58,852 nt of DNA from an uncultured Candidatus Saccharimonadales bacterium. Lineage in GTDB: Bacteria; Patescibacteriota; Saccharimonadia; UBA4664; SCTI01. Within the stretch, counting starts at the first letter, position 1. The number at the start of each line of letters is the position of its first letter. Both the position numbers and the translations under genes were made by a program. Where the stretch lies: assembly GCA_964632435.1 (NCBI GenBank), contig CAZWEJ010000002.1, forward strand, positions 1-58,852, in the 5' to 3' direction. The notes under the pieces were generated by a model that was given only the letters and a program-made list of their open reading frames with translations, searched no databases and had not been told where the DNA came from. Shown one piece after another: positions 37,015 through 58,235 of the stretch.

Positions 37015-37301
37015 ACAGCCTGTTAATAAGCTGGGGGCGGTATGTTAAAAACATAACCGCTTTTTGTTTTGTTTCCACATGGGTGCAAAAGATACATAAC
37101 AATTTTGAACAGGATTTCCAAAGATTGCACACATATTGTGCACAAGATGATACAATTTTTACCCAGGCTAAATTAGCTGTTTCTTGGCTTAATGAAGCGT
37201 TAATTAAAATTTGTACCCAGTTTCCCCAACGACTATTACTACTGCAACTGAATAAAAAAATTATAAAGTATAATATTTAATACTGTGAGGATGTGGAAAC
37301 A
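37015..37301. other. Candidate oriC segment (dnaA-dnaN spacer) with DnaA-box-like 9-mers and an AT-rich unwinding region
   Basis: gTTTCCACA at 37071-37079 and its inverted copy at 37292-37300. TTGTGCACA at 37136-37144. A very AT-rich tract at about 37200-37285. Confidence 0.5.
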
Positions 37302-38408: not shown

Positions 38409-38434
38409 GCTCTCCCCCGAGAGTTTGACCGGAT

Positions 38435-39490: not shown

Positions 39491-39493
39491 AGT

Positions 39494-39742
39494 ATGCTTG
39501 AGCGGCCTAATGATTATCTCAAGAAGCGCGCAGATGAGCTTGGCCTTGATCGAGCTGATAAGTTGGCGGAAATTCAAGCTTACTTGGATGAGAAATATCC
39601 CGGAATGTGTCGAGCAGTTAGTTTGAATGATGGTGTATTGCGGATTGCGACTTCAAATTCAAGTGTTGCTAGCGAATTAAGATATAATAAACCACATTTT
39701 TTATATGTTCGATCAATAAAAATATCTATTACAAAGACTTAA
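39494..39742 (+). CDS. DUF721/DciA-like protein
   Basis: 82 aa, in the position immediately after recF. The VSLNDGVLRIATSNSSVASELR pattern is typical of DUF721. Confidence 0.55.
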   Translation: MLERPNDYLKKRADELGLDRADKLAEIQAYLDEKYPGMCRAVSLNDGVLRIATSNSSVASELRYNKPHFLYVRSIKISITKT

Positions 39743-41127
39743 TCAGTTTCATAGTCTTGATACTCTATAGGTATATTTGATGTATTAATACCAGTCTCCT
39801 TCAAAACATTATGAGCTTCTTGTCTATTTTTTTGAGTAAAGTTTGTATCTGGGCTTTCAGGTACCCGTATTATTATTTTTGTCGTACCGAAGTTATATAG
39901 TTCTATTTTGAAATTATCTTCATATAAAGGAAGAATCTTTATTAGGTTTGAAACATTAGAAGGTATCTGTACTTCGCCTTCTTTTTGAACTTTATAAAAA
40001 GCCGATTGATTGTCATCCGATGTTGAAAAGTAAATATTTTTAGCGTCGCTAGTCGTTGAGGTTATGGAGGCATTAAGAGGTGCATTAGTTATGAGGTAAG
40101 AATAATTTTTTAATGAATCGTAAATCCATAATTCTGAACCCTTTACGTAGGAAAGTTCATTTTCACTTATCCAATTAAGGTATTTAATATCTGGAGGAAG
40201 GTTCTTCTTCTTATTCAATTTGTTATCGGTGATAAACGCCTCATTTTCTGTTGTTATGGCAATCTTTGTTGAAGAAGGGTTAATTGATTTTTCAATTGCA
40301 GAGTATTCTTTTTCGAACTTAGTATTGTTTTCGAGGTTTGTCAGTATGGTTTTGTGCTTAAAATTAGAAATGCTTTCTTCTGATGAAGGCGGGACGCTTG
40401 ATATCAATAATATCTTATCCGAAGCAGAAACTGTCGGAGAATCTATTATGGTTTCAGTAACTTTTTTCCACCCTCCATTTGTATAGGACAATATTTCTTT
40501 ACCTGACGAAACAAATATATCCCCGACATTATTTATCGCTGCTGCATTTACAACCCTTCCACCTGTATCATATTGTCTGTACTGTCCATTGGTCATAGAT
40601 GAAAGTACGGTGTCACCATTTCGGTCACCCAGAAATATCCCATGGTTAGAATCTGCCCAATTGTAAAAATATATTCTTCCAAGATTGAGGTTTATTGTGG
40701 ATGGTTGGGTTGATTTTTCAGATAACGACATCAGGTAATCACTGTTATTGTCGACATACTGAAATGTATCCTTGTATTTGTTTATTCCTCTAGCTTCTAT
40801 ATTGAATAGTATTAAACTCTGCTCGGATTTAAGTTCTGGTATTTTAATTTCTTCTTTGCTACTTGCCTTTATATCTAAAACTTTTTCGAATTGCGATGTT
40901 GCAGTGCTTGCAGATACCGTATACGAACTGGGCTTGAGTCTAGTACTAAAAGACCCTCTTTTGTTAAGTATTTCGCTATTATCTTTGTTATTGATTATTC
41001 TAACGTCTGTTTCATTGGAGGCGGTGACTTGTAAAGTACCTTTTGACAATAGATTGAACGCAATAAAAACAAATATGCCAACTATAACAATCGTAACAAT
41101 TACATAAATGTACCTTTTACTTATCAT
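39739..41127 (-). CDS. Membrane-anchored extracytoplasmic protein, last gene of the T4SS-like operon (hypothetical)
   Basis: N-terminal TM helix (YVIVTIVIVGIFVFIAF). S/N/T-rich ectodomain. Markedly AT-rich. Its start overlaps the upstream stop. Confidence 0.6.
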   Translation of the reverse strand: MISKRYIYVIVTIVIVGIFVFIAFNLLSKGTLQVTASNETDVRIINNKDNSEILNKRGSFSTRLKPSSYTVSASTATSQFEKVLDIKASSKEEIKIPELKSEQSLILFNIEARGINKYKDTFQYVDNNSDYLMSLSEKSTQPSTINLNLGRIYFYNWADSNHGIFLGDRNGDTVLSSMTNGQYRQYDTGGRVVNAAAINNVGDIFVSSGKEILSYTNGGWKKVTETIIDSPTVSASDKILLISSVPPSSEESISNFKHKTILTNLENNTKFEKEYSAIEKSINPSSTKIAITTENEAFITDNKLNKKKNLPPDIKYLNWISENELSYVKGSELWIYDSLKNYSYLITNAPLNASITSTTSDAKNIYFSTSDDNQSAFYKVQKEGEVQIPSNVSNLIKILPLYEDNFKIELYNFGTTKIIIRVPESPDTNFTQKNRQEAHNVLKETGINTSNIPIEYQDYETD

Positions 41128-42383
41128 CGATCGGGTAAATTCTTATAAGCTTCATTAATTGCGGGCATAGGGTCAATAAGATTGGCATTAGCTGCTGGTC
41201 CTGGACGGGCAAAGTAACTATCCTGTCCTTTCTTTGTAACGTCAAAATGTACATGAGGGATGGTATTTTCAGCACATTGAACTGGCCCAATAGTTGCTAT
41301 GATGTCCCCTGCTTTAACTTTATCACCAACTTTTACTTTTAGGGACCCGGGTTTTAGATGTGCATAATAGAACCAATTGCCCTCATCTCCTTCGATGTGT
41401 ATTGCTGGAAACCCTCCGGGTCCTCCTGTACAGGGCTTCTCATTAACTTTTCTTACTGTGCCTTCTTTTGCAGATACGACTTTGTAACCCTCCTTAGGAC
41501 CTAAATCGGCGGCAAAATAATCATGATGACAGCTAGATGAATTGCCAGAATTTTTACAAGTCGGTTTTGTTAGGCCGCTTGGATAAGAGCTACCATAATC
41601 TTTTTTTGTTGCAACTACTGGAAATGCGAAACCGTCTGCGGTTAAGCCAATTCCACCATTTGAACCCGCACAGCTATCCCCAACACTACCGTTTACAGAT
41701 GATTGGTCTCCAGTTTTGAAGTATTTATATGCTTTAATAATTGAATTAACGTAGTCTTGGCTGTGGTTATAATCGTACGCTGCTGCTCTCAGTTCATTCT
41801 CATTTGCTCCCACTTTTCCCCCTACTGCTGCCAGATACTTTGCGGCACCATAAGCACCATCAACCAAGTCTTGAGCATCTGCTTTCCCATCGCCATTCCC
41901 GTCAACCTTGTAAGTTGCCCATGTACTTGGAATGAACTGGAAGGCGCCCATAGTACCGAATTGGTTCGTCGGCCAGTCAGCTCCATTACCATATGGTCTT
42001 GCGGGATCTCTCCATTTGCCATCACCGGTTGTTGGTGGTGGTTGGGCGGAGTCGGCATTATTAGTTGAATCACCAGTCCTTGAGTTTTCAGCATAGTAAA
42101 ATGCAGCCAAAAAGTTTGGATCTACATTGAATTTCTTCCCAGCGGCAACAAAAATCTTTTGTAATTTCTCCTGAGTAGCTTTCCTTAAGCCCTTTCCAAC
42201 AGTAGGAGAAATTGATCCACTCGCAACCACTTCGCCACCATTATTACATGCAAAGTCCTTATCATATTGCGTTGTATCAAGATTGACTCGCTGCCTATCA
42301 TTTTGAGAAATTGCGTAGGTTCGATTGATACTTATCGAGGAAAGAATAATTGCGAAAACAATGGGGATAATCAACTTTTTCAT
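41124..42383 (-). CDS. Secreted bifunctional peptidoglycan hydrolase: lytic transglycosylase (SLT-like) plus M23 (LytM) endopeptidase
   Basis: Signal peptide. SLT motifs AENS, GAFQFIPSTW and YDYNHS. M23 C-terminus YYAHL...G..V..GD.I...G....PHVHFD. Confidence 0.8.
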   Translation of the reverse strand: MKKLIIPIVFAIILSSISINRTYAISQNDRQRVNLDTTQYDKDFACNNGGEVVASGSISPTVGKGLRKATQEKLQKIFVAAGKKFNVDPNFLAAFYYAENSRTGDSTNNADSAQPPPTTGDGKWRDPARPYGNGADWPTNQFGTMGAFQFIPSTWATYKVDGNGDGKADAQDLVDGAYGAAKYLAAVGGKVGANENELRAAAYDYNHSQDYVNSIIKAYKYFKTGDQSSVNGSVGDSCAGSNGGIGLTADGFAFPVVATKKDYGSSYPSGLTKPTCKNSGNSSSCHHDYFAADLGPKEGYKVVSAKEGTVRKVNEKPCTGGPGGFPAIHIEGDEGNWFYYAHLKPGSLKVKVGDKVKAGDIIATIGPVQCAENTIPHVHFDVTKKGQDSYFARPGPAANANLIDPMPAINEAYKNLPDR

Positions 42384-45193
42384 TTAACTGGGAAGTCGTA
42401 ATGCCAGTGGCTATAGCCGGCATCACACCTTTCTCCATTATCGTGACCATTATATTTTTCAGCAGTGTTATCCAGGACAGAACCTGAAATAGCTGGTTGA
42501 CAGTTCAAGTCTACTGCTATCCCTCGGTAGTGATTAGAAGTGCTGCTGTGATCTTTGTCAGTGAGTGCGTTAACCATTATTGGGTGATCCCTAGCTACAT
42601 CTAATATGAACCTTAAAACATTAGGGTTTAAGTCAACTTCCCTATTCTGAACAGCAAAAGGATCCATTGATGTAGTATAAGCTTTTTTACCTTCAGACAT
42701 CGCAACAACCACGTCCCGGGTATTTACTCCATTATTTGTCCAATACGTTATTTTCGAATTTGCCAGCATTCTCTTCGCAAGCTCTTGAAGGTCGCCACTA
42801 ATTCTTCCGCCTGTTGACGAGTCTTCTTCTGCTCCCGAATCTACGAAACCCACTGAGGCACATTCTTCGTCATCGCTATACATGCAAGACATACTGTTTG
42901 CCACAGCTTCATCCATTAAGCACAAGCTGCTTGGTGGATCTTGGCCTTTTCCTACAGCGTTGTTAAAGACTTCAATCTCTTGGTCACACTCGGATTTAGA
43001 TTGGCTATTATAAGGTTCACTATTTAAATCGTCTTCTGAGAATCCGTATCTTTTTACTCCATACAGATTATCATCCTGTTGTTGAGCAAAAGCTGGGCCA
43101 GTAGTAATCCTTGAAATAATATTAGGCATTGATGCGAGAAAGTTGGTTATGCCTCTTGGAGATATTGTGCTGATTGCTTTAGTACTTTGCCCTAACAAAC
43201 CCTGATAATTTGAGGGTGTAGCCATAACTAATCTAGAAAACAATGAGTTTGGATTTTCGAGGGAAGTAAGTTTTTCTACCGTGGTTTTATCAATATCTTT
43301 TTCATATCTTGCAATACTTGCATCTTGGTTTAGCTTTGAAACCTGTGAATCTGTCAGTGGTCCTCCTCCCATTGTTTGCGTGAGCGATTCGGCAACCACC
43401 GCTCCTCCTGCATCTACGCAGTTCATCATTCGTCCACCAGACTCCTCCCCCGAGCAAACAGGGGAGCCACCAAGGTATTCAACAATTTTAGTCACGAAGC
43501 TTTGAAACATCTGGTTTAAATCTACGCCTGTAATTTTTCCAAACAGCCAAATACCCGCATTTGAAGCTTCACCGACTATAGAATTTATGGCACCCATTAC
43601 TGCTGAAATAATTCGATCAACAATCGAACCGTTGTACCAATCAAAGAATTTTGAAGCAACTTTACCAAGGCTTTTTTGATATACTTCAGAAATATTTGCA
43701 GCTCTGGAGTTGTCTGAATACACCTTCATCGCATCGGTGACCTGATCGTAATCATCCTGAGAATCATTTTGCGCGTATGCTTTCCCTATTATTCCAGGGG
43801 ATTCATCTACACCCGCTATTTCCTTATAAGCATCGCTTTTTTCAATACCGTCGGTCATCTTCATGAATGAGTTTACTTCCTCTGAAGAAACCTTCTCACC
43901 TTCTTTAAGGTGATCAGTAACTGTTCCGAAGGTGAAGTAAGAAGAAGCGTATTCTGCAGCTCTCATAACTGCAATCAGCTTTACTAGCCCCATTGTGTCA
44001 GCGCCTAGTAGGTAGTCAATTTGTTTGGCGGTGTCAACATAACTCGCGGCATTTGCTATCGGAATTGCCCTTTGTACTATTTTGCTGGCAAATATCCTCG
44101 AAATTTTTCCAGCAGGCTTTCTTCCGCCTCCATCTGGCTCACTCGTACCTGCCCTTGATTCTTCAGAGCTTTGGTCTAAATCCGATTCTAGGTCGGGATC
44201 AATACTTTCATTTGCAAAACTGTTTCTATCATCGTTTGGGTTTGATGTTTCAGGACAGTCTTTGGCCTCAAAAACGCATCTATTGAAACGTCCACTCAGT
44301 AATGGTTTCGCCACCGCTTTAGACCACCTTTTTTTTACGGCGTCGTCTGTTTTATCCCTTGTGTTTTCAAAGAACCGCCACTTAGTTATGCCAAGGCGTT
44401 CGTATCCCCACTTACGAAGGTTATATCGCTTAATAACCTGCCAACTTTTAGTGTTCTCTTTTATGGCAGCATTAAAAGCTCTTCTTCCAGCTTTGTTAGA
44501 TTCAAACCTATCTTCAACAAGTCTCTCAAATTGGGTAGTATCATCTAGGCTGATATTCTTGAAATCAATATCTTCGCCTCTTACTCTGAGTGTTACCAGT
44601 CTATCTTTACCTATGCCGTCGGATTCTCGTATGAATCTAATGCCTTGTTTCTTTTCTAGATCCTCAAAAAATTTATCAGTTCGGATGTCTTTATACCATT
44701 GAGTGAAAGGATTTGGGGCGTTATACCAACCCTTTGCTTCGAAGTATCGATTCTTGCCATCCTTCTCCCCTGCTACCTCAGCCTTCATTAAGGTAACAAG
44801 AAACCTATCGCTCCTTTGGTCCATAAAATACATAAGTCGAGCCATTCTTTTTGCATCTACGTTCTCTTTCATAAAAGAAAGCTTGAAAGGTGCTAAGAAA
44901 GCAAAAAATACCGCAAGAAGAGCTGTAGAAAATCCTATAATTGCTGCCCCGATAATATAAGTTCGGCGCAGTCTTAACACTGCCCTTACACCACCAGCAG
45001 AACTATTATCTTGAGTTTTTCTTGTTACTCTTTGAGGAGAATCGTCTTCGCCTGATGATTTTCTAGATGCCAGCGCATCATTTGATACTCCTCCTGGTAG
45101 ATCTTTAGGGCTAGTTTTTTGACCAGAAGACTCTGGCTTTTCAGCCCCCATCTTTTCTTTATCATCGAGCTTTTCGTAATCTTCCGGTCGCAT
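42380..45193 (-). CDS. Large membrane-anchored protein with C-terminal LAS/M15 (VanY-like) metallopeptidase domain
   Basis: Disordered N-terminus, a single TM helix (IIGAAIIGFSTALLAVFFAFLAPF) and an ectodomain of about 800 aa. SxHxxGxAxD motif in STSNHYRGIAVDL, and a terminal HWH. Confidence 0.7.
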   Translation of the reverse strand: MRPEDYEKLDDKEKMGAEKPESSGQKTSPKDLPGGVSNDALASRKSSGEDDSPQRVTRKTQDNSSAGGVRAVLRLRRTYIIGAAIIGFSTALLAVFFAFLAPFKLSFMKENVDAKRMARLMYFMDQRSDRFLVTLMKAEVAGEKDGKNRYFEAKGWYNAPNPFTQWYKDIRTDKFFEDLEKKQGIRFIRESDGIGKDRLVTLRVRGEDIDFKNISLDDTTQFERLVEDRFESNKAGRRAFNAAIKENTKSWQVIKRYNLRKWGYERLGITKWRFFENTRDKTDDAVKKRWSKAVAKPLLSGRFNRCVFEAKDCPETSNPNDDRNSFANESIDPDLESDLDQSSEESRAGTSEPDGGGRKPAGKISRIFASKIVQRAIPIANAASYVDTAKQIDYLLGADTMGLVKLIAVMRAAEYASSYFTFGTVTDHLKEGEKVSSEEVNSFMKMTDGIEKSDAYKEIAGVDESPGIIGKAYAQNDSQDDYDQVTDAMKVYSDNSRAANISEVYQKSLGKVASKFFDWYNGSIVDRIISAVMGAINSIVGEASNAGIWLFGKITGVDLNQMFQSFVTKIVEYLGGSPVCSGEESGGRMMNCVDAGGAVVAESLTQTMGGGPLTDSQVSKLNQDASIARYEKDIDKTTVEKLTSLENPNSLFSRLVMATPSNYQGLLGQSTKAISTISPRGITNFLASMPNIISRITTGPAFAQQQDDNLYGVKRYGFSEDDLNSEPYNSQSKSECDQEIEVFNNAVGKGQDPPSSLCLMDEAVANSMSCMYSDDEECASVGFVDSGAEEDSSTGGRISGDLQELAKRMLANSKITYWTNNGVNTRDVVVAMSEGKKAYTTSMDPFAVQNREVDLNPNVLRFILDVARDHPIMVNALTDKDHSSTSNHYRGIAVDLNCQPAISGSVLDNTAEKYNGHDNGERCDAGYSHWHYDFPVK

Positions 45194-45199
45194 AAAATA

Positions 45200-47074
45200 T
45201 TACGCTCCGGCAGGACCTACCTGACCCTGCGCTTCCTGTTGATACTCTGTTGCCGCCTGCTGCTGGGCTATCTGCTGAGGACTAGTGCTAATAAGTTGAT
45301 GCTCAGTTTGAGAAGCTATTATTCGCATTACAACATGGTTGAGTCCTGCAAAAAATAGACCCTCTCCTACTGGAAATGTAGAAAGTCTCGCCTTTTCTTC
45401 GCTAGTTAATTTGAACGTCTCACCAACAATATCCACTGAGCTCGGCGCCTGCTTCAATAACAGCTGCAATGATGAGTTGGACACTACTGCCCGCCCCATT
45501 CTTGAACTCAAGAAGTCATCCACATCTTGAGAGATAGTGGTCAGCCCCAGAAGATACTTTCTCGCCCTCTTCGCAATACTGAACATAAAGTTGGCTGAGT
45601 CTTCGTATTTCATTAGCTGCCAGGCTTCGTCCACAACCAATATACGGCGCCTTTTGTCGGCCTTAACCTTGTTCCATATGTAATTAAGGATGATGTACAT
45701 TCCAACAGGTCTTAGTTCTTCTTCAAGATCGCGGATATTAAAGACAACGAATTTGTTATAGAGATCGACATTCGACTGCTCGCTAAAGATTCCTGCGAAA
45801 GTTCCACTGGTGTACTTACGCAGTCTTTGCGCCAAAGCTGGTCCATTACCACTCATCTCGGCAAGGGTTTTATATAGGTCGTTCATGGTAGGCGGAGTCG
45901 CGTTATGTGTTAAAGGATCATTCGTTATGCCCGCCTTGGCATACGTGTTGATTATAGCTACATCCAAGTCTGCATCTTCTGCAGGGGTAAGTGGCGCGGA
46001 TGTTGACCCCATCATTAATCGTAGAAGCCCATGCAAGGTAATTATGTTAGCCCTTAAGGCATTATCCGCATCCTCGCTGTCTAGAACGTGCGGTAGATCG
46101 AATGGGTTAAGTCGATTCTGAGACGCCAGACTAAGTCGTAAGTAGCTGCCTCCAACTGCATCTGCAAGTCCTCTATATTCATCCTCTGGGTCGATACAAA
46201 TAACTTCGGTACCAAGCATCAAGCTACGAAGAGCCTCAAGCTTAACCGCGAAACTTTTACCAGCACCAGACTTTGCGAATACAACCATGTTGGCGTTTTC
46301 AAGACTGAAGCGGTCGAACAAAACCAGTCCATTATTATGGCGGTTGATTCCATATAGAACTCCCTCATTTCGACTAAGCTCAGCAGATGTGAATGGAAAG
46401 CTGGTTGAAAGAGCGCCCGTGTTCATGTTCCTCGCGACACCAAGTTGATCAGCTGCCAAAGGCAGTGTTGAATTGAATGCCGGCTCCATCTGCATGGTAG
46501 CGGGCTTAGTATAGACCAGCGACTGACCCATGATGCCTTCAACTTTTCGTTGGATGTCCTTGAGATCATCTAAGCTGTCACCGTAAAGGGTTACATATAG
46601 ACCAAACCGGAAAAATCTCTCTTCTCCTACTTGTAGCTTATCCCTAAGTTCCTCTGCGTCAGAGATTGCTGCTTCTAGTCCCGGATCACGCACCCTGCCC
46701 TTCTCTTGGTTGATAGCGTAACTAGCTTCAAGCTGACCTACTTTTCTACGTAGATTATTAAGTACGACTTGACTTTCAACCGGATATATAAAGAGGCTCA
46801 TATCTATTACCTCATCAAGATTGATGATCGGGCTAAGCCAACCGGTGAAAATTTGGCGAGGATAACCGTAAACGTAGAGCGTACGAGCGAATCGAGTTCC
46901 AATCCTGATGTGGTCTCCCGCGATTTCAATTGAAGGTGGCGCAATTAGGTCCCGAAGACTTACAATTCCCTGTCGGTAGATCGCTTCGGCTTCCATCTGC
47001 TCACGCATACGCTGTTGCTGGGCAAGAGTAATGGGGTCGTTGGCCGCCTGTTTTTTACCTCCGAACATAGCCAC
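45200..47074 (-). CDS. virB4: VirB4/TrsE-family type IV secretion ATPase
   Basis: Walker A FAKSGAGKSF, Walker B RRILVVDEAWQL. N-terminal segment RTLYVYGYPRQIFTGWL is typical of VirB4-like proteins. Confidence 0.9.
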   Translation of the reverse strand: MAMFGGKKQAANDPITLAQQQRMREQMEAEAIYRQGIVSLRDLIAPPSIEIAGDHIRIGTRFARTLYVYGYPRQIFTGWLSPIINLDEVIDMSLFIYPVESQVVLNNLRRKVGQLEASYAINQEKGRVRDPGLEAAISDAEELRDKLQVGEERFFRFGLYVTLYGDSLDDLKDIQRKVEGIMGQSLVYTKPATMQMEPAFNSTLPLAADQLGVARNMNTGALSTSFPFTSAELSRNEGVLYGINRHNNGLVLFDRFSLENANMVVFAKSGAGKSFAVKLEALRSLMLGTEVICIDPEDEYRGLADAVGGSYLRLSLASQNRLNPFDLPHVLDSEDADNALRANIITLHGLLRLMMGSTSAPLTPAEDADLDVAIINTYAKAGITNDPLTHNATPPTMNDLYKTLAEMSGNGPALAQRLRKYTSGTFAGIFSEQSNVDLYNKFVVFNIRDLEEELRPVGMYIILNYIWNKVKADKRRRILVVDEAWQLMKYEDSANFMFSIAKRARKYLLGLTTISQDVDDFLSSRMGRAVVSNSSLQLLLKQAPSSVDIVGETFKLTSEEKARLSTFPVGEGLFFAGLNHVVMRIIASQTEHQLISTSPQQIAQQQAATEYQQEAQGQVGPAGA

Positions 47075-48719: not shown

Positions 48720-48775
48720 CACCCTCCTCAATTCTTATGCTTATTTTACAGTGATATCTTCCCAGATGCCACCAT

Positions 48776-50980
48776 CTAAAGGCCCAATCGATATTCAATG
48801 TCCGCCCAGTCATCCTCCTGCTCCAGTAGGTGAATCGCGTCTCTATGGGATGCAATATTTGCATTTACCATTGCCATAATCTCGTTGAACTTGCGCTGAC
48901 CCTCTGCTGTATCGGTAAACGATGCTTTATTACGCGCCATCGCTTTAAGAAGTGCCGCTCTTTTATCCGCCCCCATAAAGTTCCTTCTGTCGGCTGGGTC
49001 AAAGTTGTCTTCAATTGAGTGTGGAAGGTATTCGCCTAGAACTTGAGCCCACTGTGCCGAAACTCGCTTAGCGGTTGGCGAACTATTAGGAGTATTATCT
49101 GCAGCAATGTTAAAGTTATCGATTTTGAAATCGTCACCTGCAACCTTAAATGGTGTGAGCCCGGAAAGGAAGCTCTTTGCCATACCTGAATTTACATCTC
49201 CCATAATTGTTGGGTCTCCTGTTAAAGGATTTACCTTAGTCGGTATGTCGCTATCAAACCGAGCAAACTGTCCTGGAGATTTAGGAAGATTCTTGCCATT
49301 TTCTTTAAGGACCATCTTAAAGTCTTCGGGGTGGCCAAAACCTTGAACAGCGTTAGAAACCTCTGTGCCGAGCAAGTTATTTTCCGCCAATCTCCTTACC
49401 ATGGCCTGCCTTCCCTCAAATGTTCTCGTGTATCCAAGGAGTGATTCGCCGCCATTTGCCTTGAGTCCACTTAAGGCTTCCTTTTTCTGAGTCGAATCTC
49501 CGTAATAGCTCATAAGCGCACGGCGCTGATTCATCATGTCGGCTTCTTTCATATCGCCAAGTTCGTCGGAGTACTTTTTAACAAGCTTTGAAGCATCGCG
49601 TTGTCTTGCGAGGGAGCTACCACTATGGCCCGCAAGAAGTAACGTACCCGCGTGATACATGCCCTTTCCTGCAGTGCTCACTACCTTATTGTCGCTACCT
49701 GTCAAACTACTTAATTTATCTCCCACCTTGCCTACACGCTTGAGTTGTCGGCTCTTGGTTTTGTTTTTGGCATCCTCGTACATCTGGCTGTCTTTGATCT
49801 TTCCACGACCCTTCTTCCCAAGATCATCAATTGCGGAACCAGCTGCACTCATAAATCCACCGGCCCATCTGAAAGATTGAGTAACAGCGCCAAATGCTGC
49901 CACAAGTATCAATATTTTTATGAGAGATGTTGCAATATTCTGAGACACACTCCCCCCAGCTCCTCCAGATTCTGCTGTAAGTGGAATTAGCGAACCGACA
50001 TTAGCCGCTACCGCAAGCAACCCTATGATTATCGGGTACATTAAAGAAATCTTCACAAATGATTTTAGCCACTGATTAAAGTACTTTTCTGTATTTGGCA
50101 GTACCCATGCTGCAAAAGCTAAAGGCGAAACAACTATAAATAACCCGATCAAAAAGTAGCGCATCGCCAAAGTAAAGATGAAAGCTGCTACCGAAACAAC
50201 CACCATAAGCGCGATCGGAACAGCTAGAGGAGCTGCGAGTAATAGCAAAACAGACAATGTGACAATTCCGAATACAGTCGCAACATTTTCAATTATCATC
50301 CCCGAGTTAAAGGCATCGGGTGATGTGCCGCCTCCAACAACAGAATTTATTATTGCACCAACGCCCTGGCCAAGGATATTGCCTATATCAACAATGATTG
50401 CCGAGACTAAGTATGAGGCTTGAACAAATATTGCTGCAGCAACAAGCTTTGGCAGAATACTCTTAAAGTTGTATGAATCCAAGTTGCTCGGAATAATATA
50501 CGAAAAAATCATTACCATAAAAATAATCACAAATGAAATGTTTGCGAGAGTCCTCACAGCATTCCATGTTTCGTAAATTGGGCCCTCAAATTTTAACGGC
50601 TCAACTTCTAAGAATTGATGCATCATGTCCGTTACTGCATCAGACATAATGTTTGCAACGTTGTCTAGGATGGGACACATCATAAAAGCAAGTCGACCGT
50701 TTTGTTCACTACAGGTTTCGTAATTATCTTTTACCTGGTCTTTGAGGTCTTGTTTGTTTTGAGGCTTATTGCTCCCCGGAGCCTCAACAAGTGGAGGTGC
50801 CTCGGTGTTTGGTATGGTTGTTTCTGGTGGGGTCTCTCCAAGTGGTGCTTGAGCAAAGGCATACCCACCGGTAAATACCGATGCCTCATGTGAAGCGGCA
50901 CTGTGGCTAAAAATATGGCCGATTGATGGTTGAATCAAGACCAAAAAAATAGCTAGCGCCCAGGTTTGAATCAGCCGCAT
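48776..50980 (-). CDS. Extended VirB6/TrbL-like polytopic channel protein, paralog 1
   Basis: Signal peptide, small ectodomain, about 6-7 TM helices and a hydrophilic C-terminal tail of about 330 aa. Shares blocks with 51050-53509 (for example ILPKLVAAAIFVQASY vs ILPKLIVAAILIQMSY). Confidence 0.65.
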   Translation of the reverse strand: MRLIQTWALAIFLVLIQPSIGHIFSHSAASHEASVFTGGYAFAQAPLGETPPETTIPNTEAPPLVEAPGSNKPQNKQDLKDQVKDNYETCSEQNGRLAFMMCPILDNVANIMSDAVTDMMHQFLEVEPLKFEGPIYETWNAVRTLANISFVIIFMVMIFSYIIPSNLDSYNFKSILPKLVAAAIFVQASYLVSAIIVDIGNILGQGVGAIINSVVGGGTSPDAFNSGMIIENVATVFGIVTLSVLLLLAAPLAVPIALMVVVSVAAFIFTLAMRYFLIGLFIVVSPLAFAAWVLPNTEKYFNQWLKSFVKISLMYPIIIGLLAVAANVGSLIPLTAESGGAGGSVSQNIATSLIKILILVAAFGAVTQSFRWAGGFMSAAGSAIDDLGKKGRGKIKDSQMYEDAKNKTKSRQLKRVGKVGDKLSSLTGSDNKVVSTAGKGMYHAGTLLLAGHSGSSLARQRDASKLVKKYSDELGDMKEADMMNQRRALMSYYGDSTQKKEALSGLKANGGESLLGYTRTFEGRQAMVRRLAENNLLGTEVSNAVQGFGHPEDFKMVLKENGKNLPKSPGQFARFDSDIPTKVNPLTGDPTIMGDVNSGMAKSFLSGLTPFKVAGDDFKIDNFNIAADNTPNSSPTAKRVSAQWAQVLGEYLPHSIEDNFDPADRRNFMGADKRAALLKAMARNKASFTDTAEGQRKFNEIMAMVNANIASHRDAIHLLEQEDDWADIEYRLGL

Positions 50981-51049
50981 TAAGATGCTATTACCTCATT
51001 AAGACGAATAGATAATAGTACCTTATCTGTTGGACAGATTCAAGGAGAG

Positions 51050-53509
51050 CTACGAAGTGAAGGTTACTGTGCCGCCGCTGGTATTTGAGCCGGGTCTTGT
51101 TGGTCCTGATCCGGAACCAGGAGCGGTTGGGGCTCCGGTGATGTAGGCATCTGGTCGCTTATACTCTACCCCTGCTTGATCACGGCGAGTAGATGGATCC
51201 GCGTGTGCAGGCAATGCTGAGGACCCACTCACATATTGCATATGTCCTGCTATATGACTACTGTGTTGTCCTAGTTCACCCCTGTCCGCAAGCTCTTTTA
51301 ATGTTCCTAGTGCTCTACGATTGAAATTGCTTCTTAAGCCAGGGCTTGAAGAGATAGAATCGAATATTGCACCTATATTAGCGTGTCTTTGCTCAAGTGT
51401 TTCTCCGCTCCCCATATTATCCCCTCGAGCATATCTTTCTATAGTAGTAGGGTCTAGATCTCCAAAGTCACCTGGCTTTATAGAACTCAATGCTTCGAAT
51501 CCACCGCTGCCCCTTGTGATATCGGGAGCAGCGCTATCAATATCCCCATAGGCACTGTTGACTGCATCTCCGTACAACTGCTGCCCACCTGGTGCTGCAA
51601 GCATACTTCTTATGGTTTCATAGTCTCTGTATTGTGCTAATTTCTTAATTGCGAATTTTCTCGAAGCTGCATCTGCTCTGTAGCCCTTAGCTGTTCCACT
51701 TGCAATGGCAGTAAGGAGGCTCTTTTTCTGTGGAAAACTACTTCTTGCGGTGTCGTTTTCGAACTGCCTCTCAACGGCTTTCTGATCTTGATCAAATAGT
51801 TTGTTTTGAGCAGTCCCCACTCGGTTTCTGGCCTTAGCGGAATTCCATAAAAAGCCTCCTCCCGCAATTTTATTTTGCCATCTAGCTTTTGGACTGAAGC
51901 CAGTGATATTGGGATTGTAAGCTCTAAGAGCCCGATTTTTTCTGTCTTCGATTCGATCTTTATTCCAATCGCTTCCCTGGATACCTTTACTAGCTTTTGA
52001 ACCAGCTTTAGTGGTAACCTCCCCAATCTTTTTCATCATTCCTCCTGCCCATGAAAATGTGAATGGAACGGCAAGCAGCGGAAGTGCCAAACATAGCATT
52101 GCAACAATTGGACCTATAGACTGAACAACCACTGTCGAATTAACGCTTAATGCAGATATTGCTGCAATTCGGCCCGCTGCAAAAAGAAGAATAATTAGTG
52201 GATACATCAAGAGTAGCCTAATAAAGAGGTCCATCCATTTTCTAAACAAGTTTTCGGTATTTGGTAGTGCCATTGCTGCAATAGCTATAGGGGCGCTCAA
52301 AACCAGTAAAACTAAGAGTACCTGCCTTAAAACAAGTGTTAACATCACCGCCGCTATACCTATAACCATCGGCAGAGCCGCCGCAAAAACACCAACAGCG
52401 GCAATTTGTGCGGTAAGCGCAATAGTTATTAATGTTGCCGCACCGAACATTACAAAACCGCCGATAATCTTCGCTTCTCCAGCTGCCTCATATCTAATAT
52501 TGGGCATTATTTCGACCACGATATCACGCAAGCCCTTGCCCAGAATATTTGTGACATCAATTGCAGCTGCCATTAAGACATATGACATCTGAATCAATAT
52601 TGCCGCCACGATTAATTTCGGTAATATCTTCTTTGCGTTGTAGGCTTGTATGGAAAACAGGTTTCCAAAAATTACCACCATAAATACGATTACAAAGAAT
52701 ACGTTTGCTAGACTTCTCATCACATTCCAAGCTGCATATTGAGGGTTATCGCTAGAGCTTGTATTGAAGGAAAGCGGATCCACTTCAAACATAGGGGCAA
52801 TTAGTTTTGTCTCAACAAAGCCTACAAACTCTGAGAAAACCTTTATTAATCCACAGACGACCCAGCCGAATCCTCCTTCCGTTGTACAGGCATTTTGAGC
52901 TTCTTCCTCAGGGGATGCTCCGGAGTCATTTGAGTCATTAGAGTCATTACTGTTTCTTTGGCCTACCCTTGCTTTAAATCTATCTAGTACATCTCCCTTA
53001 GTAGCGTTTAATATTTGGATATTTTTTTCCCCGCCACGACCGCTAAGGCCATCAGGGGCACAATTTCGACCAATTGCAGTTAGCGTAGAAGCAACAATTT
53101 TTCCTGTAAATTTCTCCTTAGAATCAAAATTCTCACTTAGTTGGATGTCTACGTCGAACCAATGAGTCTCCATTATCTGATCCGACTCATCGCCTGAACC
53201 ATAACAATTTATTTCACCGCGATATTTAGCAATCTTGGTATTCTTGTTATAACCTTCAGAACCGTTTGCTAGTAAAAAGTCATATTTTTGACCCTGTTTT
53301 CCCCACCCGACGGCGTGGATTGTGGCGTTTCTTAATCCAGCTGGATTTCCAGATCTTATGGCCTCTTTAATTATTCCTGCTTGATCTTTGTCATAGGCAA
53401 AGATGTACATTTCCTCAGCTTGAGCCTGAGTTGCAAGCTGAGGGATAAGTAAGAATGCAATTGCACCAATGAGTGCAAAAACGGTTCTTTTTATAAGGCC
53501 CACCTTCAT
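51050..53509 (-). CDS. Extended VirB6/TrbL-like polytopic channel protein, paralog 2
   Basis: Probable start MKVGLIKRTVFALIGAIAFLLIP (the ORF extends to 53566). Ectodomain of about 200 aa, a TM bundle and a hydrophilic tail of about 320 aa. Confidence 0.65.
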   Translation of the reverse strand: MKVGLIKRTVFALIGAIAFLLIPQLATQAQAEEMYIFAYDKDQAGIIKEAIRSGNPAGLRNATIHAVGWGKQGQKYDFLLANGSEGYNKNTKIAKYRGEINCYGSGDESDQIMETHWFDVDIQLSENFDSKEKFTGKIVASTLTAIGRNCAPDGLSGRGGEKNIQILNATKGDVLDRFKARVGQRNSNDSNDSNDSGASPEEEAQNACTTEGGFGWVVCGLIKVFSEFVGFVETKLIAPMFEVDPLSFNTSSSDNPQYAAWNVMRSLANVFFVIVFMVVIFGNLFSIQAYNAKKILPKLIVAAILIQMSYVLMAAAIDVTNILGKGLRDIVVEIMPNIRYEAAGEAKIIGGFVMFGAATLITIALTAQIAAVGVFAAALPMVIGIAAVMLTLVLRQVLLVLLVLSAPIAIAAMALPNTENLFRKWMDLFIRLLLMYPLIILLFAAGRIAAISALSVNSTVVVQSIGPIVAMLCLALPLLAVPFTFSWAGGMMKKIGEVTTKAGSKASKGIQGSDWNKDRIEDRKNRALRAYNPNITGFSPKARWQNKIAGGGFLWNSAKARNRVGTAQNKLFDQDQKAVERQFENDTARSSFPQKKSLLTAIASGTAKGYRADAASRKFAIKKLAQYRDYETIRSMLAAPGGQQLYGDAVNSAYGDIDSAAPDITRGSGGFEALSSIKPGDFGDLDPTTIERYARGDNMGSGETLEQRHANIGAIFDSISSSPGLRSNFNRRALGTLKELADRGELGQHSSHIAGHMQYVSGSSALPAHADPSTRRDQAGVEYKRPDAYITGAPTAPGSGSGPTRPGSNTSGGTVTFTS

Positions 53510-53587
53510 AAGCATAAGTGTAATAGATTTTTTGATGGAATGCATCTGGTGTGTAAAAAAGGTCAAATCTGTAATAGAATAAGCGCA

Positions 53588-54034
53588 ATGAAAAAAATAA
53601 TACTTTTTGCAATAGTAGTGCTCTTTACAGCACTAAATACTGCGCCAGTTAAAGCCTTTTCTTATGGTGTGCAATCCGAAAACGGATTTAAGCTATCCGC
53701 ACTTACTGCTAAGCAGTGTAGAGAAAAAGGTGGTGTGCCAGTCAGTGGAGTGTTTGGTCCAGATACAAACTGTATTGGTAGCGGAAGCCAGAATCCTATT
53801 TTTGCTATGATCTCAATTTTTCTGCAATTCGCAATTGCTATGTTCGCCCTGAGTTTAGTTGCAATACTTGTTTTCGCGGGCATTAGATATATTGCGTCCG
53901 GAGGGAACCCCGATGATGTAAAGGAAGCAAAAAATCTAATCAAGGCAGTTCTTACCGCCTTAGTTCTATTTGCTATCATGTTTGCAGTTCTTAGGTTGAT
54001 AATACCCGAAGGCGTTGGAGTATTTCGTACATGA
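53588..54034 (+). CDS. VirB2/TrbC-like T4SS pilin paralog 1
   Basis: Signal peptide MKKIILFAIVVLFTALNTAPVKA, 2 Cys, then TM-GIRYIASGGNPDDVKEAK-TM. Confidence 0.75.
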   Translation: MKKIILFAIVVLFTALNTAPVKAFSYGVQSENGFKLSALTAKQCREKGGVPVSGVFGPDTNCIGSGSQNPIFAMISIFLQFAIAMFALSLVAILVFAGIRYIASGGNPDDVKEAKNLIKAVLTALVLFAIMFAVLRLIIPEGVGVFRT

Positions 54035-54321
54035 AGTTAGCACAGGTGGTACCAAGTTTATATCGGGGTGTAGACAAATTCGATAGCATTAATGACTTCC
54101 TAATAATTCTTGCCAACCTTATTCAAATAGGCCTCTTCTTATCAGGAGTTCTTGCTGTGATATTTATTTCATGGTCAGGAATACAGTACATTACGTCTCA
54201 GGGTGATCCAGGAAGAGTTCAATCTGCAAAAAGTGGTATGCGTAATGCCGTCGTTGGCCTTGTGCTCGCGGCCGGGTCCTACCTATTAGTAAATTTCTTT
54301 GCAAGGCAGCTTTTAGGATGA
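54031..54321 (+). CDS. VirB2/TrbC-like pilin paralog 2 (short, no obvious signal peptide, no Cys)
   Basis: TM-GIQYITSQGDPGRVQSAK-TM. ATGA overlap with paralog 1. Confidence 0.7.
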   Translation: MKLAQVVPSLYRGVDKFDSINDFLIILANLIQIGLFLSGVLAVIFISWSGIQYITSQGDPGRVQSAKSGMRNAVVGLVLAAGSYLLVNFFARQLLG

Positions 54322-54695
54322 AAAAGATATCACTAGGCTTTATGGGGCTTGCATACTTTATTTTTGTGCCTGCAGCAAGAGCGGCTGACAAGTGCTATGA
54401 CTCGAGCGGTAAATTACAGGACTACTGTAAGCTAGACAAGGCGGAAACACTTGGGTTTGTGGACCAATCATTTACCACTGTTGCCACAAATATAGTTAAT
54501 ATACTAGGGATCATAGCTGGTGTACTCTCAGTGCTTTTCTTGATCATTGGCGGAATCAGCTACATTACTTCCGAGGGAGATCCGGCAAAGCTTAAGGGGG
54601 CAAAAAGTACCGTGCTTTATGCCGTGATTGGTTTGGCGGTTTCAATTTTAGCCCCGCTTATAGTAGGTTATGTGTTAGAATTCAGTCCCAAGTAG
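54318..54695 (+). CDS. VirB2/TrbC-like pilin paralog 3
   Basis: Signal peptide, a CYDSSGKLQDYC loop, then TM-GISYITSEGDPAKLKGAK-TM. Confidence 0.75.
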   Translation: MKKISLGFMGLAYFIFVPAARAADKCYDSSGKLQDYCKLDKAETLGFVDQSFTTVATNIVNILGIIAGVLSVLFLIIGGISYITSEGDPAKLKGAKSTVLYAVIGLAVSILAPLIVGYVLEFSPK

Positions 54696-54732
54696 CTTTA
54701 CACCACAGATTGCAACAGATACAATTTTGGTA

Positions 54733-55194
54733 ATGGTTAACTTTTTTAAAAGATATATATTTATATCAATATTTGCTTTAGGGTGTATTTCGTTAATTCC
54801 GGCAGTTGCCTCTGCCGAGAACGCCATCAATACAAGCATTTGTAAAAGCTTTTATGATGCTCAAAAGAATCTGGATCCAGGCGAAAAGAAAGCCAATCCG
54901 CCAGCTGGTTGTGAAGGTCAGAATCCGGGTGGGCAGCTTCTTGATAAAGTTCAAGGGGATCCAAGTGGAGCCGGGTATATAAAAACTCTATTAAATGGGT
55001 TTATTTACGCCGCCGGAATCGTTTGTCTTATTTTCCTTCTCCTTGGCAGCATTCGGTACCTCACATCAAGCGGCAACTCTGCTCGAATTCAACAGGCAAA
55101 AGATACCGTGTTATACTCAATTATCGGATTAGTAATTGTTGCGTTAGCAATCCCAATATCCGATTATGTAATAGGTATATTTCGGCAACCATGA
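54733..55194 (+). CDS. VirB2/TrbC-like pilin paralog 4
   Basis: Signal peptide, 2 Cys (SICKS...PAGCEG), then TM-SIRYLTSSGNSARIQQAK-TM. The ORF track begins at TTG 54727. Confidence 0.75.
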   Translation: MVNFFKRYIFISIFALGCISLIPAVASAENAINTSICKSFYDAQKNLDPGEKKANPPAGCEGQNPGGQLLDKVQGDPSGAGYIKTLLNGFIYAAGIVCLIFLLLGSIRYLTSSGNSARIQQAKDTVLYSIIGLVIVALAIPISDYVIGIFRQP

Positions 55195-55541
55195 AAACCA
55201 AACTTTTATACTCAGCAGCACTAATTCAAACCTTAATTCCTGCATCAGCCCTTGCAGTTGATACAGACTCTCAGTGTGAGGGTGCCCAGGCGGTTGGTGG
55301 AGCTTGCACTAAGGCTGGGCTCGATGCCTCACTAGAAAGGATCCTCTCAACGCTTTTCTTTATAATTGGATCTATAGCAGTTATTTTTCTGTTGATCGGG
55401 GCCATTCGTTATATTACCTCTACTGGAGACGCCACAAGAATAAAGCAAGCTAAAGATACTATTTTTTACGCCATAGCTGGGCTTATTGTTGCTATCGTGG
55501 CACAGGCGCTAGTAAGCTTTGTAATATCGAGGCTGAGTTAA
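55191..55541 (+). CDS. VirB2/TrbC-like pilin paralog 5
   Basis: In-frame start MKTKLLYSAALIQTLIPASALA at 55191 (ATGA overlap). A CEGAQAVGGAC loop, then TM-AIRYITSTGDATRIKQAK-TM. Confidence 0.75.
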   Translation: MKTKLLYSAALIQTLIPASALAVDTDSQCEGAQAVGGACTKAGLDASLERILSTLFFIIGSIAVIFLLIGAIRYITSTGDATRIKQAKDTIFYAIAGLIVAIVAQALVSFVISRLS

Positions 55542-55951
55542 TGAAGAAACTTTTATCTGTTTTATTGACGCTAACATTCACAGCTACTCTCTTCTCGCCA
55601 GTGTCCAGTCTTGCTGCTTTAACTGCTACCGAAAAACAATTGTGCACAGGGAGCAATAATCAAGTTGTTGGAACGGGACCAGATGAAAAGTGTGTACCTA
55701 AAACCGGAAAAACACTTACTGGCGCAGATAGTTATCTGACGGATATTATTAATTTACTTCTATTTCTAGCGGGAGCTATAGCTGTTATCGTCATTATTAT
55801 AGGTGGCATTAGGTATATAACCTCCACTGGCGATGCAATGAGAATTAAACAGGCCAAAGATACTATTTTGTACGGTATTGTTGGGTTGATCATCGCAATT
55901 TTCGCTTACGCAATCGTAAATAGCCTTGTGTGGCAATTAACAGGAACCTAA
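55541..55951 (+). CDS. VirB2/TrbC-like pilin paralog 6
   Basis: Signal peptide, a C...C loop of 20 residues, then TM-GIRYITSTGDAMRIKQAK-TM. Confidence 0.75.
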   Translation: MKKLLSVLLTLTFTATLFSPVSSLAALTATEKQLCTGSNNQVVGTGPDEKCVPKTGKTLTGADSYLTDIINLLLFLAGAIAVIVIIIGGIRYITSTGDAMRIKQAKDTILYGIVGLIIAIFAYAIVNSLVWQLTGT

Positions 55952-56304
55952 TGAGAAAAACCAAATTTGTGATTTATAGCTTGTTATTATTTCCCTCTTT
56001 TGCCCTTGCCCAATTAGGCGAAGGCGTTGACTCAACGAAACCACCGGTAAATGCGGAAGGAAAAGAAGTTGTGCCAACAAATCTATGGCAAGAGATTGAT
56101 ACAATAACCAACCTTTTACTTTTTTTAGCAGGTGCAGTAGCAGTAATAGTGATAATTTTTGGTGGATTTAGGTATATTACCTCTACGGGAGATCCGGCAA
56201 GAGTTAAGCAGGCAAAGGATACAATAGTCTATGGCATCATTGGGTTGATAGTAGCAATCCTTGCCTACGCTATTGTGCGTTTTATAACCACCCAACTCAA
56301 ATAA
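55951..56304 (+). CDS. VirB2/TrbC-like pilin paralog 7 (no Cys)
   Basis: Start MRKTKFVIYSLLLFPSFALA at 55951 (TAATG overlap). TM-GFRYITSTGDPARVKQAK-TM. Confidence 0.75.
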   Translation: MRKTKFVIYSLLLFPSFALAQLGEGVDSTKPPVNAEGKEVVPTNLWQEIDTITNLLLFLAGAVAVIVIIFGGFRYITSTGDPARVKQAKDTIVYGIIGLIVAILAYAIVRFITTQLK

Positions 56305-56316
56305 AGCATAACAGGT

Positions 56317-56344
56317 TTGATTTTAATCTGGAGCGTGGTATACT
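56317..56344 (+). promoter_or_regulatory. Sigma70-like promoter for pilin paralog 8
   Basis: TTGATT, a 16-nt spacer, then TGG-TATACT (extended -10), about 40 nt upstream of ATG 56383. Confidence 0.4.
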
Positions 56345-56382
56345 CGGCTCAAAGATAGGAATTAACCATAAAAAGGAAAAAA

Positions 56383-56799
56383 ATGAATTTATCAGTATCA
56401 TCAGCTATAGAAAAAGCCGGAAAAGGAGCTATCTATCTAGGTACTTTTATGCCGGTTGCGGCTCTAGCTCAAACAGAACCAACCTGTAACCCTCAAACAG
56501 GAGGAGCAACAGGTGGCGCAGATTGCGCGAAGGCAACATCACAACCTGAATCATTGTTCGCAACGGGAGGAGTCTTCCAGACAGTTTCAAACGTTCTCAT
56601 TTTCTTGGTGGGAGCGGTTGCTGTTATCATGCTCATCTGGGGTGGATTACAATATGTCATATCTGCCGGCGATTCGAAGAGGGTCGAAAGTGCAAAAAGT
56701 ACCATTCTCTATTCCATAATAGGAATTGTAGTTGCACTTCTTGCATTTGCGATTGTAAACTTTGTTACCACGCAGTTAAGTGCAACTCCAACAACTTAG
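56383..56799 (+). CDS. VirB2/TrbC-like pilin paralog 8
   Basis: Signal peptide, a CNPQTGGATGGADC loop, then TM-GLQYVISAGDSKRVESAK-TM. Confidence 0.75.
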   Translation: MNLSVSSAIEKAGKGAIYLGTFMPVAALAQTEPTCNPQTGGATGGADCAKATSQPESLFATGGVFQTVSNVLIFLVGAVAVIMLIWGGLQYVISAGDSKRVESAKSTILYSIIGIVVALLAFAIVNFVTTQLSATPTT

Positions 56800-56823: not shown

Positions 56824-56847
56824 ACCCGCTTCGGCGGGTTTCTTTTT
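56824..56847 (+). terminator. Rho-independent terminator ending the pilin array
   Basis: ACCCGC-ttcg-GCGGGT followed by TTCTTTTT. Confidence 0.75.
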
Positions 56848-58227: not shown

Positions 58228-58235
58228 ATAATTGC

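Follow-up and report, generated by a model that had tools for sequence, protein, structure and literature searches.

The DNA described here, referred to as the window, is a stretch of 58,852 nt from a 122-kb metagenomic scaffold of a Saccharimonadia (Saccharibacteria/TM7, Patescibacteria) chromosome. Next to dnaA it encodes a type IV secretion system (T4SS) of the Patescibacteria type. We conclude that this system is most probably a vertically inherited chromosomal derivative of the conjugation machinery of monoderm bacteria (mating-pair formation class FATA, MPF-FATA, CD1110-like) that is itself non-conjugative and serves epibiotic host interaction in Saccharibacteria. The system, its position on the dnaA side and the non-conjugative reading are already known, having appeared in print between 2023 and 2025 (PMC10633639, PMC12102498, PMC12857230).

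The most direct information comes from Ca. Southlakia epibionticum ML1. In this organism SEML1_0006-0019 encode an unusual T4SS with essential pilins that is closest to Gram-positive conjugative systems and has no recognisable coupling or relaxase proteins, and transposon sequencing (Tn-seq) of the epibiont on its host found SEML1_0004-0020 essential with the exception of 0012 (Wang et al. 2023, PMC10633639). The window shares the order and orientation of SEML1_0004-0019 from recF to tRNA-Ser, namely recF, 0004-0007, VirB4, 0009, PrgI, VirB6, VirB6, pilins, Hsp20, ComFC and tRNA-Ser. Both loci lie beside dnaA and combine wall-side genes, VirB4, a TrsD-like protein, PrgI, two VirB6-like proteins and a divergent pilin array with Hsp20 and ComFC, and neither contains a relaxase or a type IV coupling protein (T4CP). 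They differ in detail. There are eight pilins in the window and six in ML1; the non-essential NTF2-like SEML1_0012 lies between the VirB6 paralogs of ML1, where the window has a gap of ∼70 bp; a single 462-aa protein with a PEGA domain and a propeller corresponds to two smaller genes, 0004 and 0005; and the second hydrolase combines SLT and M23 domains, whereas SEML1_0006 has a lysozyme, a second lysozyme and a cysteine-peptidase domain. SEML1_0007, the ortholog of the 937-aa protein of the window, is annotated as a Hedgehog/DD-peptidase, and the wall-side genes of the two loci have essentially no primary-sequence relation. An earlier, sequence-only reading of this DNA had proposed a dedicated host-interaction apparatus rather than a conjugation system. 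That proposal is upheld by the chromosomal setting, by the lack of a transfer module and by the essentiality of the orthologs in Tn-seq (PMC10633639), the last of which supports a host-interaction role for the window locus.

The Patescibacteria as a whole present the same picture. Their VirB4 clade adjoins MPF-FATA, with TrsD, PrgI and VirB6 near virB4, pilin arrays of 2-11 genes and a location near dnaA and dnaN, and relaxases were found in only 103 genomes (Quinonero-Coronel et al. 2025, PMC12102498). The window has the VirB4 type, TrsD and PrgI, VirB6, the pilin array, hydrolases downstream of virB4, proximity to dnaA and the lack of relaxase and T4CP that characterise this clade. A search of species-level genomes of the GTDB found relatives of its VirB4 in at least 571; the best 80 matches have 65-97% identity and are without exception metagenome-assembled genomes of Saccharimonadia/Patescibacteria. 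These relatives place the window in the Saccharibacteria, as expected from the earlier suggestion of a bacterium that belongs to the candidate phyla radiation (CPR).

Components of the secretion locus

The operon comprises eight genes on the minus strand, from 53566 down to 39739, and the eight pilin genes diverge from it on the plus strand between 53540 and 56799 (Table 1). Counted from 39739 upward, neighbouring genes of the operon overlap by 4 and 4 bp, are separated by 6 bp, overlap by 1 and 1 bp, and are separated by 44 and 69 bp; at its 3' end the operon shares 4 bp (39739-39742) with the convergent DciA/DUF721 gene. The map of open reading frames (ORFs) agrees with the sequence-only reading on operon content and order, on the divergent pilin genes, on the mostly overlapping or abutting arrangement and on a locus that begins directly after recF/DUF721. 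Pfam matches described as precomputed are those stored with the annotation of the source contig, all others being from scans run in this analysis.

Table 1. Coordinates of the secretion locus and its origin-side neighbours in the window.
Feature	Position	Strand	Evidence or remark
dnaA, dnaN, recF, DciA	35632..39742	+	Context, not part of the machine; convergent with operon
462-aa membrane-anchored protein: N-terminal transmembrane helix, PEGA/prealbumin-like domain, beta-propeller	39739..41127	-	Last operon gene
Secreted peptidoglycan hydrolase, 419 aa, SLT + M23	41124..42383	-	VirB1-like role
937-aa anchored protein, C-terminal LAS (Hedgehog/DD-peptidase, M15-like) zinc-peptidase domain	42380..45193	-
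VirB4 ATPase, 624 aa, CD1110/MPF-FATA type	45200..47074	-	Without usual N-terminal domain
TrsD-like protein, 248 aa	47074..47820	-	Detached VirB4 N-terminal domain
PrgI/VirB3-like protein, 303 aa	47820..48731	-	PF12666 at 6e-13
Extended VirB6/TrbL-like polytopic membrane protein, 734 aa	48776..50980	-	Precomputed PF19590 TrbL_3
Second extended VirB6/TrbL-like paralog, 838 aa (longest ORF)	51050..53566	-	Precomputed PF19590 TrbL_3
VirB2-like pilin 1	53540..54034	+	PF18895 4e-5 (below cutoff), NF045849 9e-5; probable start 53588 (MKKIILF...)
VirB2-like pilin 2	54031..54321	+	PF18895 8e-10
VirB2-like pilin 3	54318..54695	+	PF18895 7e-14, TrbC 2e-5
VirB2-like pilin 4	54727..55194	+	PF18895 3e-10
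VirB2-like pilin 5, 116 aa (as in source annotation)	55191..55541	+	PF18895 7e-10
VirB2-like pilin 6	55541..55951	+	PF18895 3e-10, TrbC 1.4e-6; 75% core identity to pilin 7
VirB2-like pilin 7	55930..56304 (source start 55951)	+	PF18895 4e-15, NF045849 39.9 bits, cutoff 40
VirB2-like pilin 8	56383..56799	+	PF18895 7e-12
Terminator-like hairpin at pilin operon end	56824..56839	+	Consensus match only

VirB4 matches the CD1110 family model NF045971 of NCBIfam with 363 bits, against a cutoff of 325, and PF19044 at 1.5e-26; its Walker A (AKSGAGKS) and Walker B (ILVVDEAW) motifs, read from the sequence, are both intact. The alignment spans model positions 172-731 of 752. The 248-aa protein matches the NCBIfam TrsD family (1.4e-9) and aligns with the N-terminal part of two VirB4 models (positions 128-233 of 894 and 11-101 of 752), with a precomputed match to PF26593 TraC-like, and a sequence search against the PDB returned nothing significant. 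Since VirB4 aligns only from position 172, and the 248-aa protein covers the N-terminus of the model, the ATPase is split between two proteins, as described for Patescibacteria (PMC12102498). The two genes adjoin in 77 of the 80 loci. In the window the PrgI and TrsD-like genes lie immediately upstream of virB4, each with a 1-bp overlap, and PrgI has transmembrane segments at residues 28-46 and 49-67 followed by a long Pro/Gln/Ser-rich tail.

The two large polytopic proteins are paralogs (34% identity over 333 aa, E 6e-37). The 734-aa protein has five or six predicted transmembrane segments after its signal, and a C-terminal hydrophilic domain of ∼350 aa. Its paralog, which the source annotation gives as 831 aa with a start at 53545, has an extra N-terminal exported domain. 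Our own Pfam scan of the full-length proteins gave no match, and the transmembrane core only a weak one, to PF04610 TrbL (E 0.007).

The three wall-side proteins follow virB4. In the 937-aa protein a disordered N-terminus and one transmembrane helix (residues 80-98) precede a conserved, mostly helical body of ∼650 aa; the body and the motif SxHxxGxAxD...HxH are conserved in an alignment with 11 homologs. A model of the C-terminus (predicted local distance difference test, pLDDT, 85) has as its top Foldseek matches Shh-N, MepA, 1lbu (a Streptomyces DD-peptidase), ChiX, VldE and VanY, all of the LAS fold, with marginal E-values of 0.009-0.3. The match to PF13539 M15_4 is sub-threshold (E 0.031), and sequence searches of the PDB with the protein and with its C-terminus found nothing significant. 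Of the M15 domain claimed by the sequence-only reading, the LAS fold and the zinc motif are retained and the Pfam membership is not; as a description of the predicted fold, M15-like is acceptable. A full-length AlphaFold model built from 12 sequences was rejected, having a pLDDT of 50 and meaningless coiled-coil/axoneme matches in Foldseek. Homologs with additional or alternative enzymatic modules before the LAS domain, such as an S11/beta-lactamase-like (P0001), an M74 MepA-like (P0002) or a GDSL esterase module (P0007), give the family a modular architecture that looks like a swappable 'warhead'.

The 419-aa hydrolase matches PF13406 SLT_2 (6e-9) and PF01551 Peptidase_M23 (3e-14) and has an N-terminal hydrophobic signal. 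The 462-aa protein has one hydrophobic segment, at residues 9-27; a single N-terminal segment of this kind in both it and the 937-aa protein fits their earlier description as anchored. This last protein does not itself match Pfam, and a word-indexed search returned only a fragment of the same protein. An exhaustive search (E<=1e-3) placed it in a family with no fewer than 172 cluster representatives, whose lengths are all ∼450-480 aa; a profile of 41 family members matches WD40, TolB and PQQ propellers in the PDB, and members match PD40, WD40, PEGA and CarboxypepD_reg in Pfam. It has positional orthologs in three of the compared loci (L004, L032 and L077) and compares with SEML1_0004/0005 (prealbumin-like, PEGA). 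From genome to genome the hydrolase domains (LAS, M23, SLT, S11-like and GDSL) trade places between the two genes that come first downstream of virB4. For every one of the eight operon proteins a family or at least a fold can be named, and the earlier statement that most components lack a clear family was overstated.

All eight pilin genes match PF18895 T4SS_pilin, seven of them above the cutoff, and all eight match NF045849, the NCBIfam family of Mbov_0395-type pilin-like proteins from Mycoplasma integrative conjugative elements (ICEs). Their cores share a mean identity of 44%, with a maximum of 75%. Pilin 1 has a signal peptide and a two-helix hairpin. The start of pilin 5 is most likely 55191, as the longest ORF, from 55023, would overlap pilin 4; the overlap of pilin 1 with the 838-aa gene likewise arises only with the longest ORFs. 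Between plausible start codons the divergent VirB6 and pilin operons are separated by at most ∼40-80 bp (53509-53588), so close that both promoters would have to share a very short region, and no convincing sigma-70 match was found in this spacer. Beyond pilin 8, the terminator-like hairpin of the pilin operon faces a second, assigned to hsp20, at 56915-56900. Promoter and terminator scans of the window gave counts at chance level.

Chromosomal position, conservation and the absence of transfer genes

The gene dnaA (35632-37014, plus strand) is followed by dnaN, recF and DciA/DUF721, to 39742; upstream of it the minus strand carries rpmH, rnpA, yidC and the KH/R3H (jag) gene, these genes extending as far as 35.5 kb. 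The rpmH-dnaA spacer contains two TTGTCCACA DnaA-box-like sites. Over the whole window, however, DnaA-box-like 9-mers are not enriched (13 found, 15 expected), and the description of the locus as origin-adjacent therefore rests on gene neighbourhood. GC skew was rejected as an origin marker, as it changes with gene strand throughout the window and gives no position for the origin.

This position recurs. In 55 species genomes at least 9 kb of sequence follows virB4, and in 52 of these recF is convergent and lies 2.1-8.6 kb after virB4; the interval typically holds three genes of ∼900-1300, 400-750 and 200-540 aa. Pilin arrays (2-8 pilin matches) are present in 38 of the 44 genomes with enough sequence upstream of virB4. 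One of the three exceptions is chromosomal and merely has a longer operon. In the other two (L029 and L034), also chromosomal, virB4, TrsD and PrgI lie among ValRS, TsaD, Mur ligase and GroEL genes; the PrgI/TrsD-like/VirB4 triad stands alone between the Mur ligase and DDAH-like genes, and in L029 pilin-like genes are found ∼11 kb away on the other side of the triad. The core is therefore separable from the VirB6 and pilin genes.

VirB4 identity varies with DnaN or RecF identity (Spearman rho ∼0.5, p ∼1e-4), and the median identities in the same loci are 67% for VirB4, 51% for DnaA, 46% for DnaN and 41% for RecF. With the closest complete locus (L001) as reference, divergence is graded from the inside of the machine to the outside. 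VirB4 (87% identity) and the TrsD-like protein (78%) are better conserved than DnaN (71%), RecF (67%) and DnaA (64%), whereas the VirB6 paralogs (43% for the 734-aa and 26% for the 838-aa protein), the pilins (35-56%) and the three wall-side proteins, which have almost no alignable similarity, diverge far faster than the genome; PrgI is 59% identical. The fixed place by recF, the covariation of VirB4 with DnaN and RecF and the lack of mobile-element marks agree with the vertical inheritance on the chromosome put forward by the sequence-only reading, and the synteny comparison across Saccharimonadia that it recommended gave no sign of a patchy, plasmid-like distribution: the position is fixed across species, and plasmid-borne VirB4s are all less than 60% identical to that of the window (best 41%).

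Scans for genes of DNA transfer covered the window and 10 kb beyond each end, ∼79 kb in total. No relaxase, VirD4/TcpA coupling ATPase or integrase family was matched in the window ORFs scanned or among the genes called in the flanks, no att-like direct repeats were found around the locus, and, there being no relaxase, an oriT is not definable. The absence of these genes and of an att site at the locus is as first claimed, and the absence of a coupling protein holds for the locus and its flanks. The other window ORFs belong by Pfam to a two-component cluster, LexA, dockerin proteins, VanW, a glycan-synthesis island and origin-side housekeeping genes. The 10-kb flanks, in which a relaxase and a coupling protein had been named as evidence that would overturn the non-conjugative proposal, hold housekeeping genes (ValRS, TsaB-like, FemAB, MsrA/B, UbiA and ABC transporters) and neither of the two. 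Transfer genes are visible where they exist: on an Embleya plasmid, which carries one of the nearest plasmid VirB4s (41% identity), a T4CP and a replication-relaxation gene were detected directly downstream of virB4.

One claim had to be corrected. No flanking tRNA had been seen, but a tRNA-Ser(GCT) gene lies at 58236-58328, 1.4 kb past the last pilin gene. It has no att-like duplicate and is syntenic with SEML1_0022, and since the same Hsp20-ComFC-tRNA-Ser tail follows the S. epibionticum pilins, it is a case of synteny rather than the scar of an integration. A single long direct repeat (58227-58264 and 58789-58826) was detected and was rejected as an att site, being the 3' end common to two tRNA-Ser genes. 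An Rfam scan found two tRNAs only. After the T4SS-hsp20-comF block comes a group of tRNA genes, Ser(GCT), Ser(CGA), Arg(GCG) and Ser(TGA). A scaffold gap terminates the window, and the copies of the 5' part of tRNA-Ser(CGA) on either side of the Ns in the source contig (58789-58852 of the window, and 11216-11434 of L081) are an assembly artefact.

These data bear on whether the locus could be a decaying or domesticated remnant of an integrated conjugative element, with transfer genes that were only recently lost or are situated just beyond the region. Its VirB4 belongs to the CD1110 conjugative family, a tRNA-Ser cluster lies 1.4 kb beyond the pilins, and ∼45 kb of the source contig and the remaining genome lie outside the region examined. 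The recurrent recF-side position, the syntenic tRNA and the distance of all plasmid-borne VirB4s speak against such an origin, however, as do the absence of an integrase, an att repeat or a GC anomaly (the GC content of the locus is unremarkable), the intactness of all ORFs and a VirB4 more constrained than DnaA. We regard an element of this kind as very improbable and a conjugative or ICE origin as effectively excluded.

Other features of the window

A surface-glycan synthesis island of ∼15 kb (17010-32622) precedes the origin-side genes. Besides multiple glycosyltransferases (GT1, GT2 and GT4) it encodes three methyltransferases, an ABC exporter of the Wzm/Wzt type (21461-23449) and a flippase-like protein; a 702-aa ORF (28481-30589) matches no family. 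Its GC content is 0.37-0.41, compared with 0.42-0.49 in the flanks. At 7617-13368 the only domains recognised in two large proteins (488 and 825 aa) are dockerin type I domains at the C-terminus; next to them is a VanW/PG_binding_4 protein, and they may be surface or adhesion proteins. A compact signalling cluster (3019-5261) consists of a PAS histidine kinase and, on its flanks, three stand-alone receiver-domain proteins without output domains. A 659-aa protein (15047-17026) has N_BRCA1_IG Ig-like repeats and a weak C1q-like match, and a 201-aa ORF just upstream of it has a weak SpoIIIAH-like match.

Relatives, mechanism and function

The conjugative MPF-FATA systems, such as C. difficile CTn2/CD1110, Prg/Pcf of pCF10, Trs of pGO1 and that of the Embleya plasmid (NZ_CP108778), have a CD1110-family VirB4, a TrsD, PrgI and VirB6 core and a multi-domain peptidoglycan hydrolase after virB4, as does the window. 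They differ in having a T4CP and a relaxase next to virB4, in being carried on plasmids or ICEs and, generally, in having adhesins instead of pili, where the window has eight pilins; the relaxase, the coupling ATPase and carriage on a mobile element were all lacking in the ∼79 kb. A locus of more similar layout is present on the megaplasmid of Pontibacillus sp. ALD_SL1 (NZ_CP062975, 351801-361354; L088), where two tandem pilin-like genes come first and are followed by those for a large polytopic protein, a small membrane protein, a TrsD-like protein, VirB4 and a ∼1050-aa peptidoglycan metallopeptidase. Its TrsD-like protein matches the 248-aa protein with an E-value of 2.7e-31, its VirB4 is 39% identical, and, as in the window, no T4CP or relaxase is annotated, here within 12 kb. 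Unlike the window, it has only two pilins, on the virB4 strand, and lies on a megaplasmid adjacent to flagellar genes. From this Bacillota locus and the NF045849 likeness, the pilins may be an ancestral trait of a monoderm FATA sub-lineage, and not something taken over from diderm systems.

A working model can be outlined from these assignments. PrgI/VirB3 and the two extended VirB6 paralogs would form a membrane platform that docks the split VirB4 ATPase (the TrsD-like N-domain protein and the 624-aa ATPase). VirB4 would pull Sec-inserted VirB2-like pilins from the membrane and drive their polymerisation into a pilus or tube of the conjugative type, in which the eight paralogs would serve as alternative or mixed subunits. 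The three wall-side proteins (the SLT+M23 hydrolase and the anchored LAS-peptidase and PEGA/propeller proteins) may open and organise a passage through the peptidoglycan, and the filament would touch or penetrate the host envelope; it may serve import, export or contact alone. Assembly of the Agrobacterium T-pilus requires the VirB proteins and not VirD4, so a T4SS without a coupling protein can be competent for pilus biogenesis.

Several points weigh against this model and against the reading of the locus as a non-conjugative host-interaction system. A pilus of this system has yet to be demonstrated in the literature, and a 2026 preprint on the cultivated parasitic bacterium OT8 reports only tubular structures that 'may be' T4SS pili. 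No VirB8-like (NTF2), VirB5 or VirB11 protein was detected in the locus; for VirB8 no family match was obtained, with neither the N-terminal exported domain of the 838-aa protein nor the body of the 937-aa protein resolved structurally. The assembly pathway can thus not simply be carried over from diderm models. The VirB6 assignment is drawn in part from a precomputed Pfam match, our own scan having stayed below threshold. The hydrolases could act on the host wall instead of the bacterium's own, and a VirD4-like gene may lie elsewhere in the genome, distant and non-essential t4cp homologs being present in some Patescibacteria (PMC12102498).

Systems that transport other cargo illustrate what such a machine might do. 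Helicobacter ComB (DNA uptake) and Bordetella Ptl and Brucella VirB (protein export) share with the window a channel driven by VirB4, subunits of the VirB2 type and the lack of both relaxase and coupling protein; they differ in being diderm MPF-T systems with a VirB7/9/10 outer-membrane core, and have no specific sequence affinity with it. To our knowledge, none of the three is essential for growth. ComB and, in the Sulfolobales, Ced are T4SS-derived uptake systems that work without a relaxase, and by analogy the VirB4-powered channel or pilus might take up host macromolecules or nutrients (nucleic acids, nucleotides or lipids). The lack of a relaxase and T4CP near the locus fits this, as do comF and tRNA genes as syntenic neighbours. 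Nucleotides, amino acids and lipids are not made de novo by Saccharibacteria, and the T4SS is essential (PMC10633639); a review of December 2025, which repeats the non-conjugative conclusion, speculates on uptake through the pilus (PMC12857230), and the 2026 preprint describes RNA feeding with possible T4SS pili. On the other hand, published deletion of comEC in S. epibionticum abolishes competence and not viability, so the T4SS is not essential by way of classical DNA uptake; ComFC (SEML1_0021) is non-essential, no substrate-binding or nuclease component was identified in the locus, and the window VirB4 scores 40 bits against CedB, far below the cutoff of 700, with 17 bits for CedD, which indicates no specific Ced homology. 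Import is possible, but we consider it rather unlikely.

Much the same can be said of export, in which proteins such as toxins, hydrolases or host-manipulating effectors would be injected into or onto the host bacterium, in the manner of Ptl, Brucella VirB or the bacteria-killing T4SSs of the Xanthomonas type. Protein export or an alternative capacity is favoured by Wang et al. (PMC10633639), and the wall-side genes evolve extremely fast and swap enzymatic domains (LAS, M23, S11/beta-lactamase-like and GDSL), a pattern typical of host-directed factors. Against this, neither a recognisable effector nor an immunity pair or secretion-signal family was found; the T4SSs known to lack a T4CP belong to diderms and draw their substrates from the periplasm; and the Sec signals or anchors of the hydrolases are ordinary. 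Gram-positive conjugative T4SSs, moreover, need similar multi-domain hydrolases (PrgK/TraG-type) to get through their own wall. Export, too, is an unlikely alternative, if a tenable one.

A more specific and still more speculative proposal, which we consider improbable, is that a hollow multi-pilin filament draws cytoplasmic material of the host (RNA, nucleotides or lipids) inward, and that the hypervariable, domain-swapping wall-side module, together with the pilin paralogs, targets the host envelope and determines host range. If true, this would be the first T4SS-type machine to serve feeding.

For the reading preferred here, a non-conjugative host-interaction system, the window is a further well-preserved example of a recognised and actively studied system and not a discovery. 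What it adds is the inside-outside gradient of divergence, the shuffling of hydrolase domains and the likeness of the pilins to the Mbov_0395 type. This is the first T4SS reported to be essential to its bearer (PMC12857230), it may exemplify a pilus-bearing T4SS in a monoderm, and it is among the few molecular handles on the life that the CPR/Patescibacteria, which account for a large part of bacterial diversity, lead on other bacteria.

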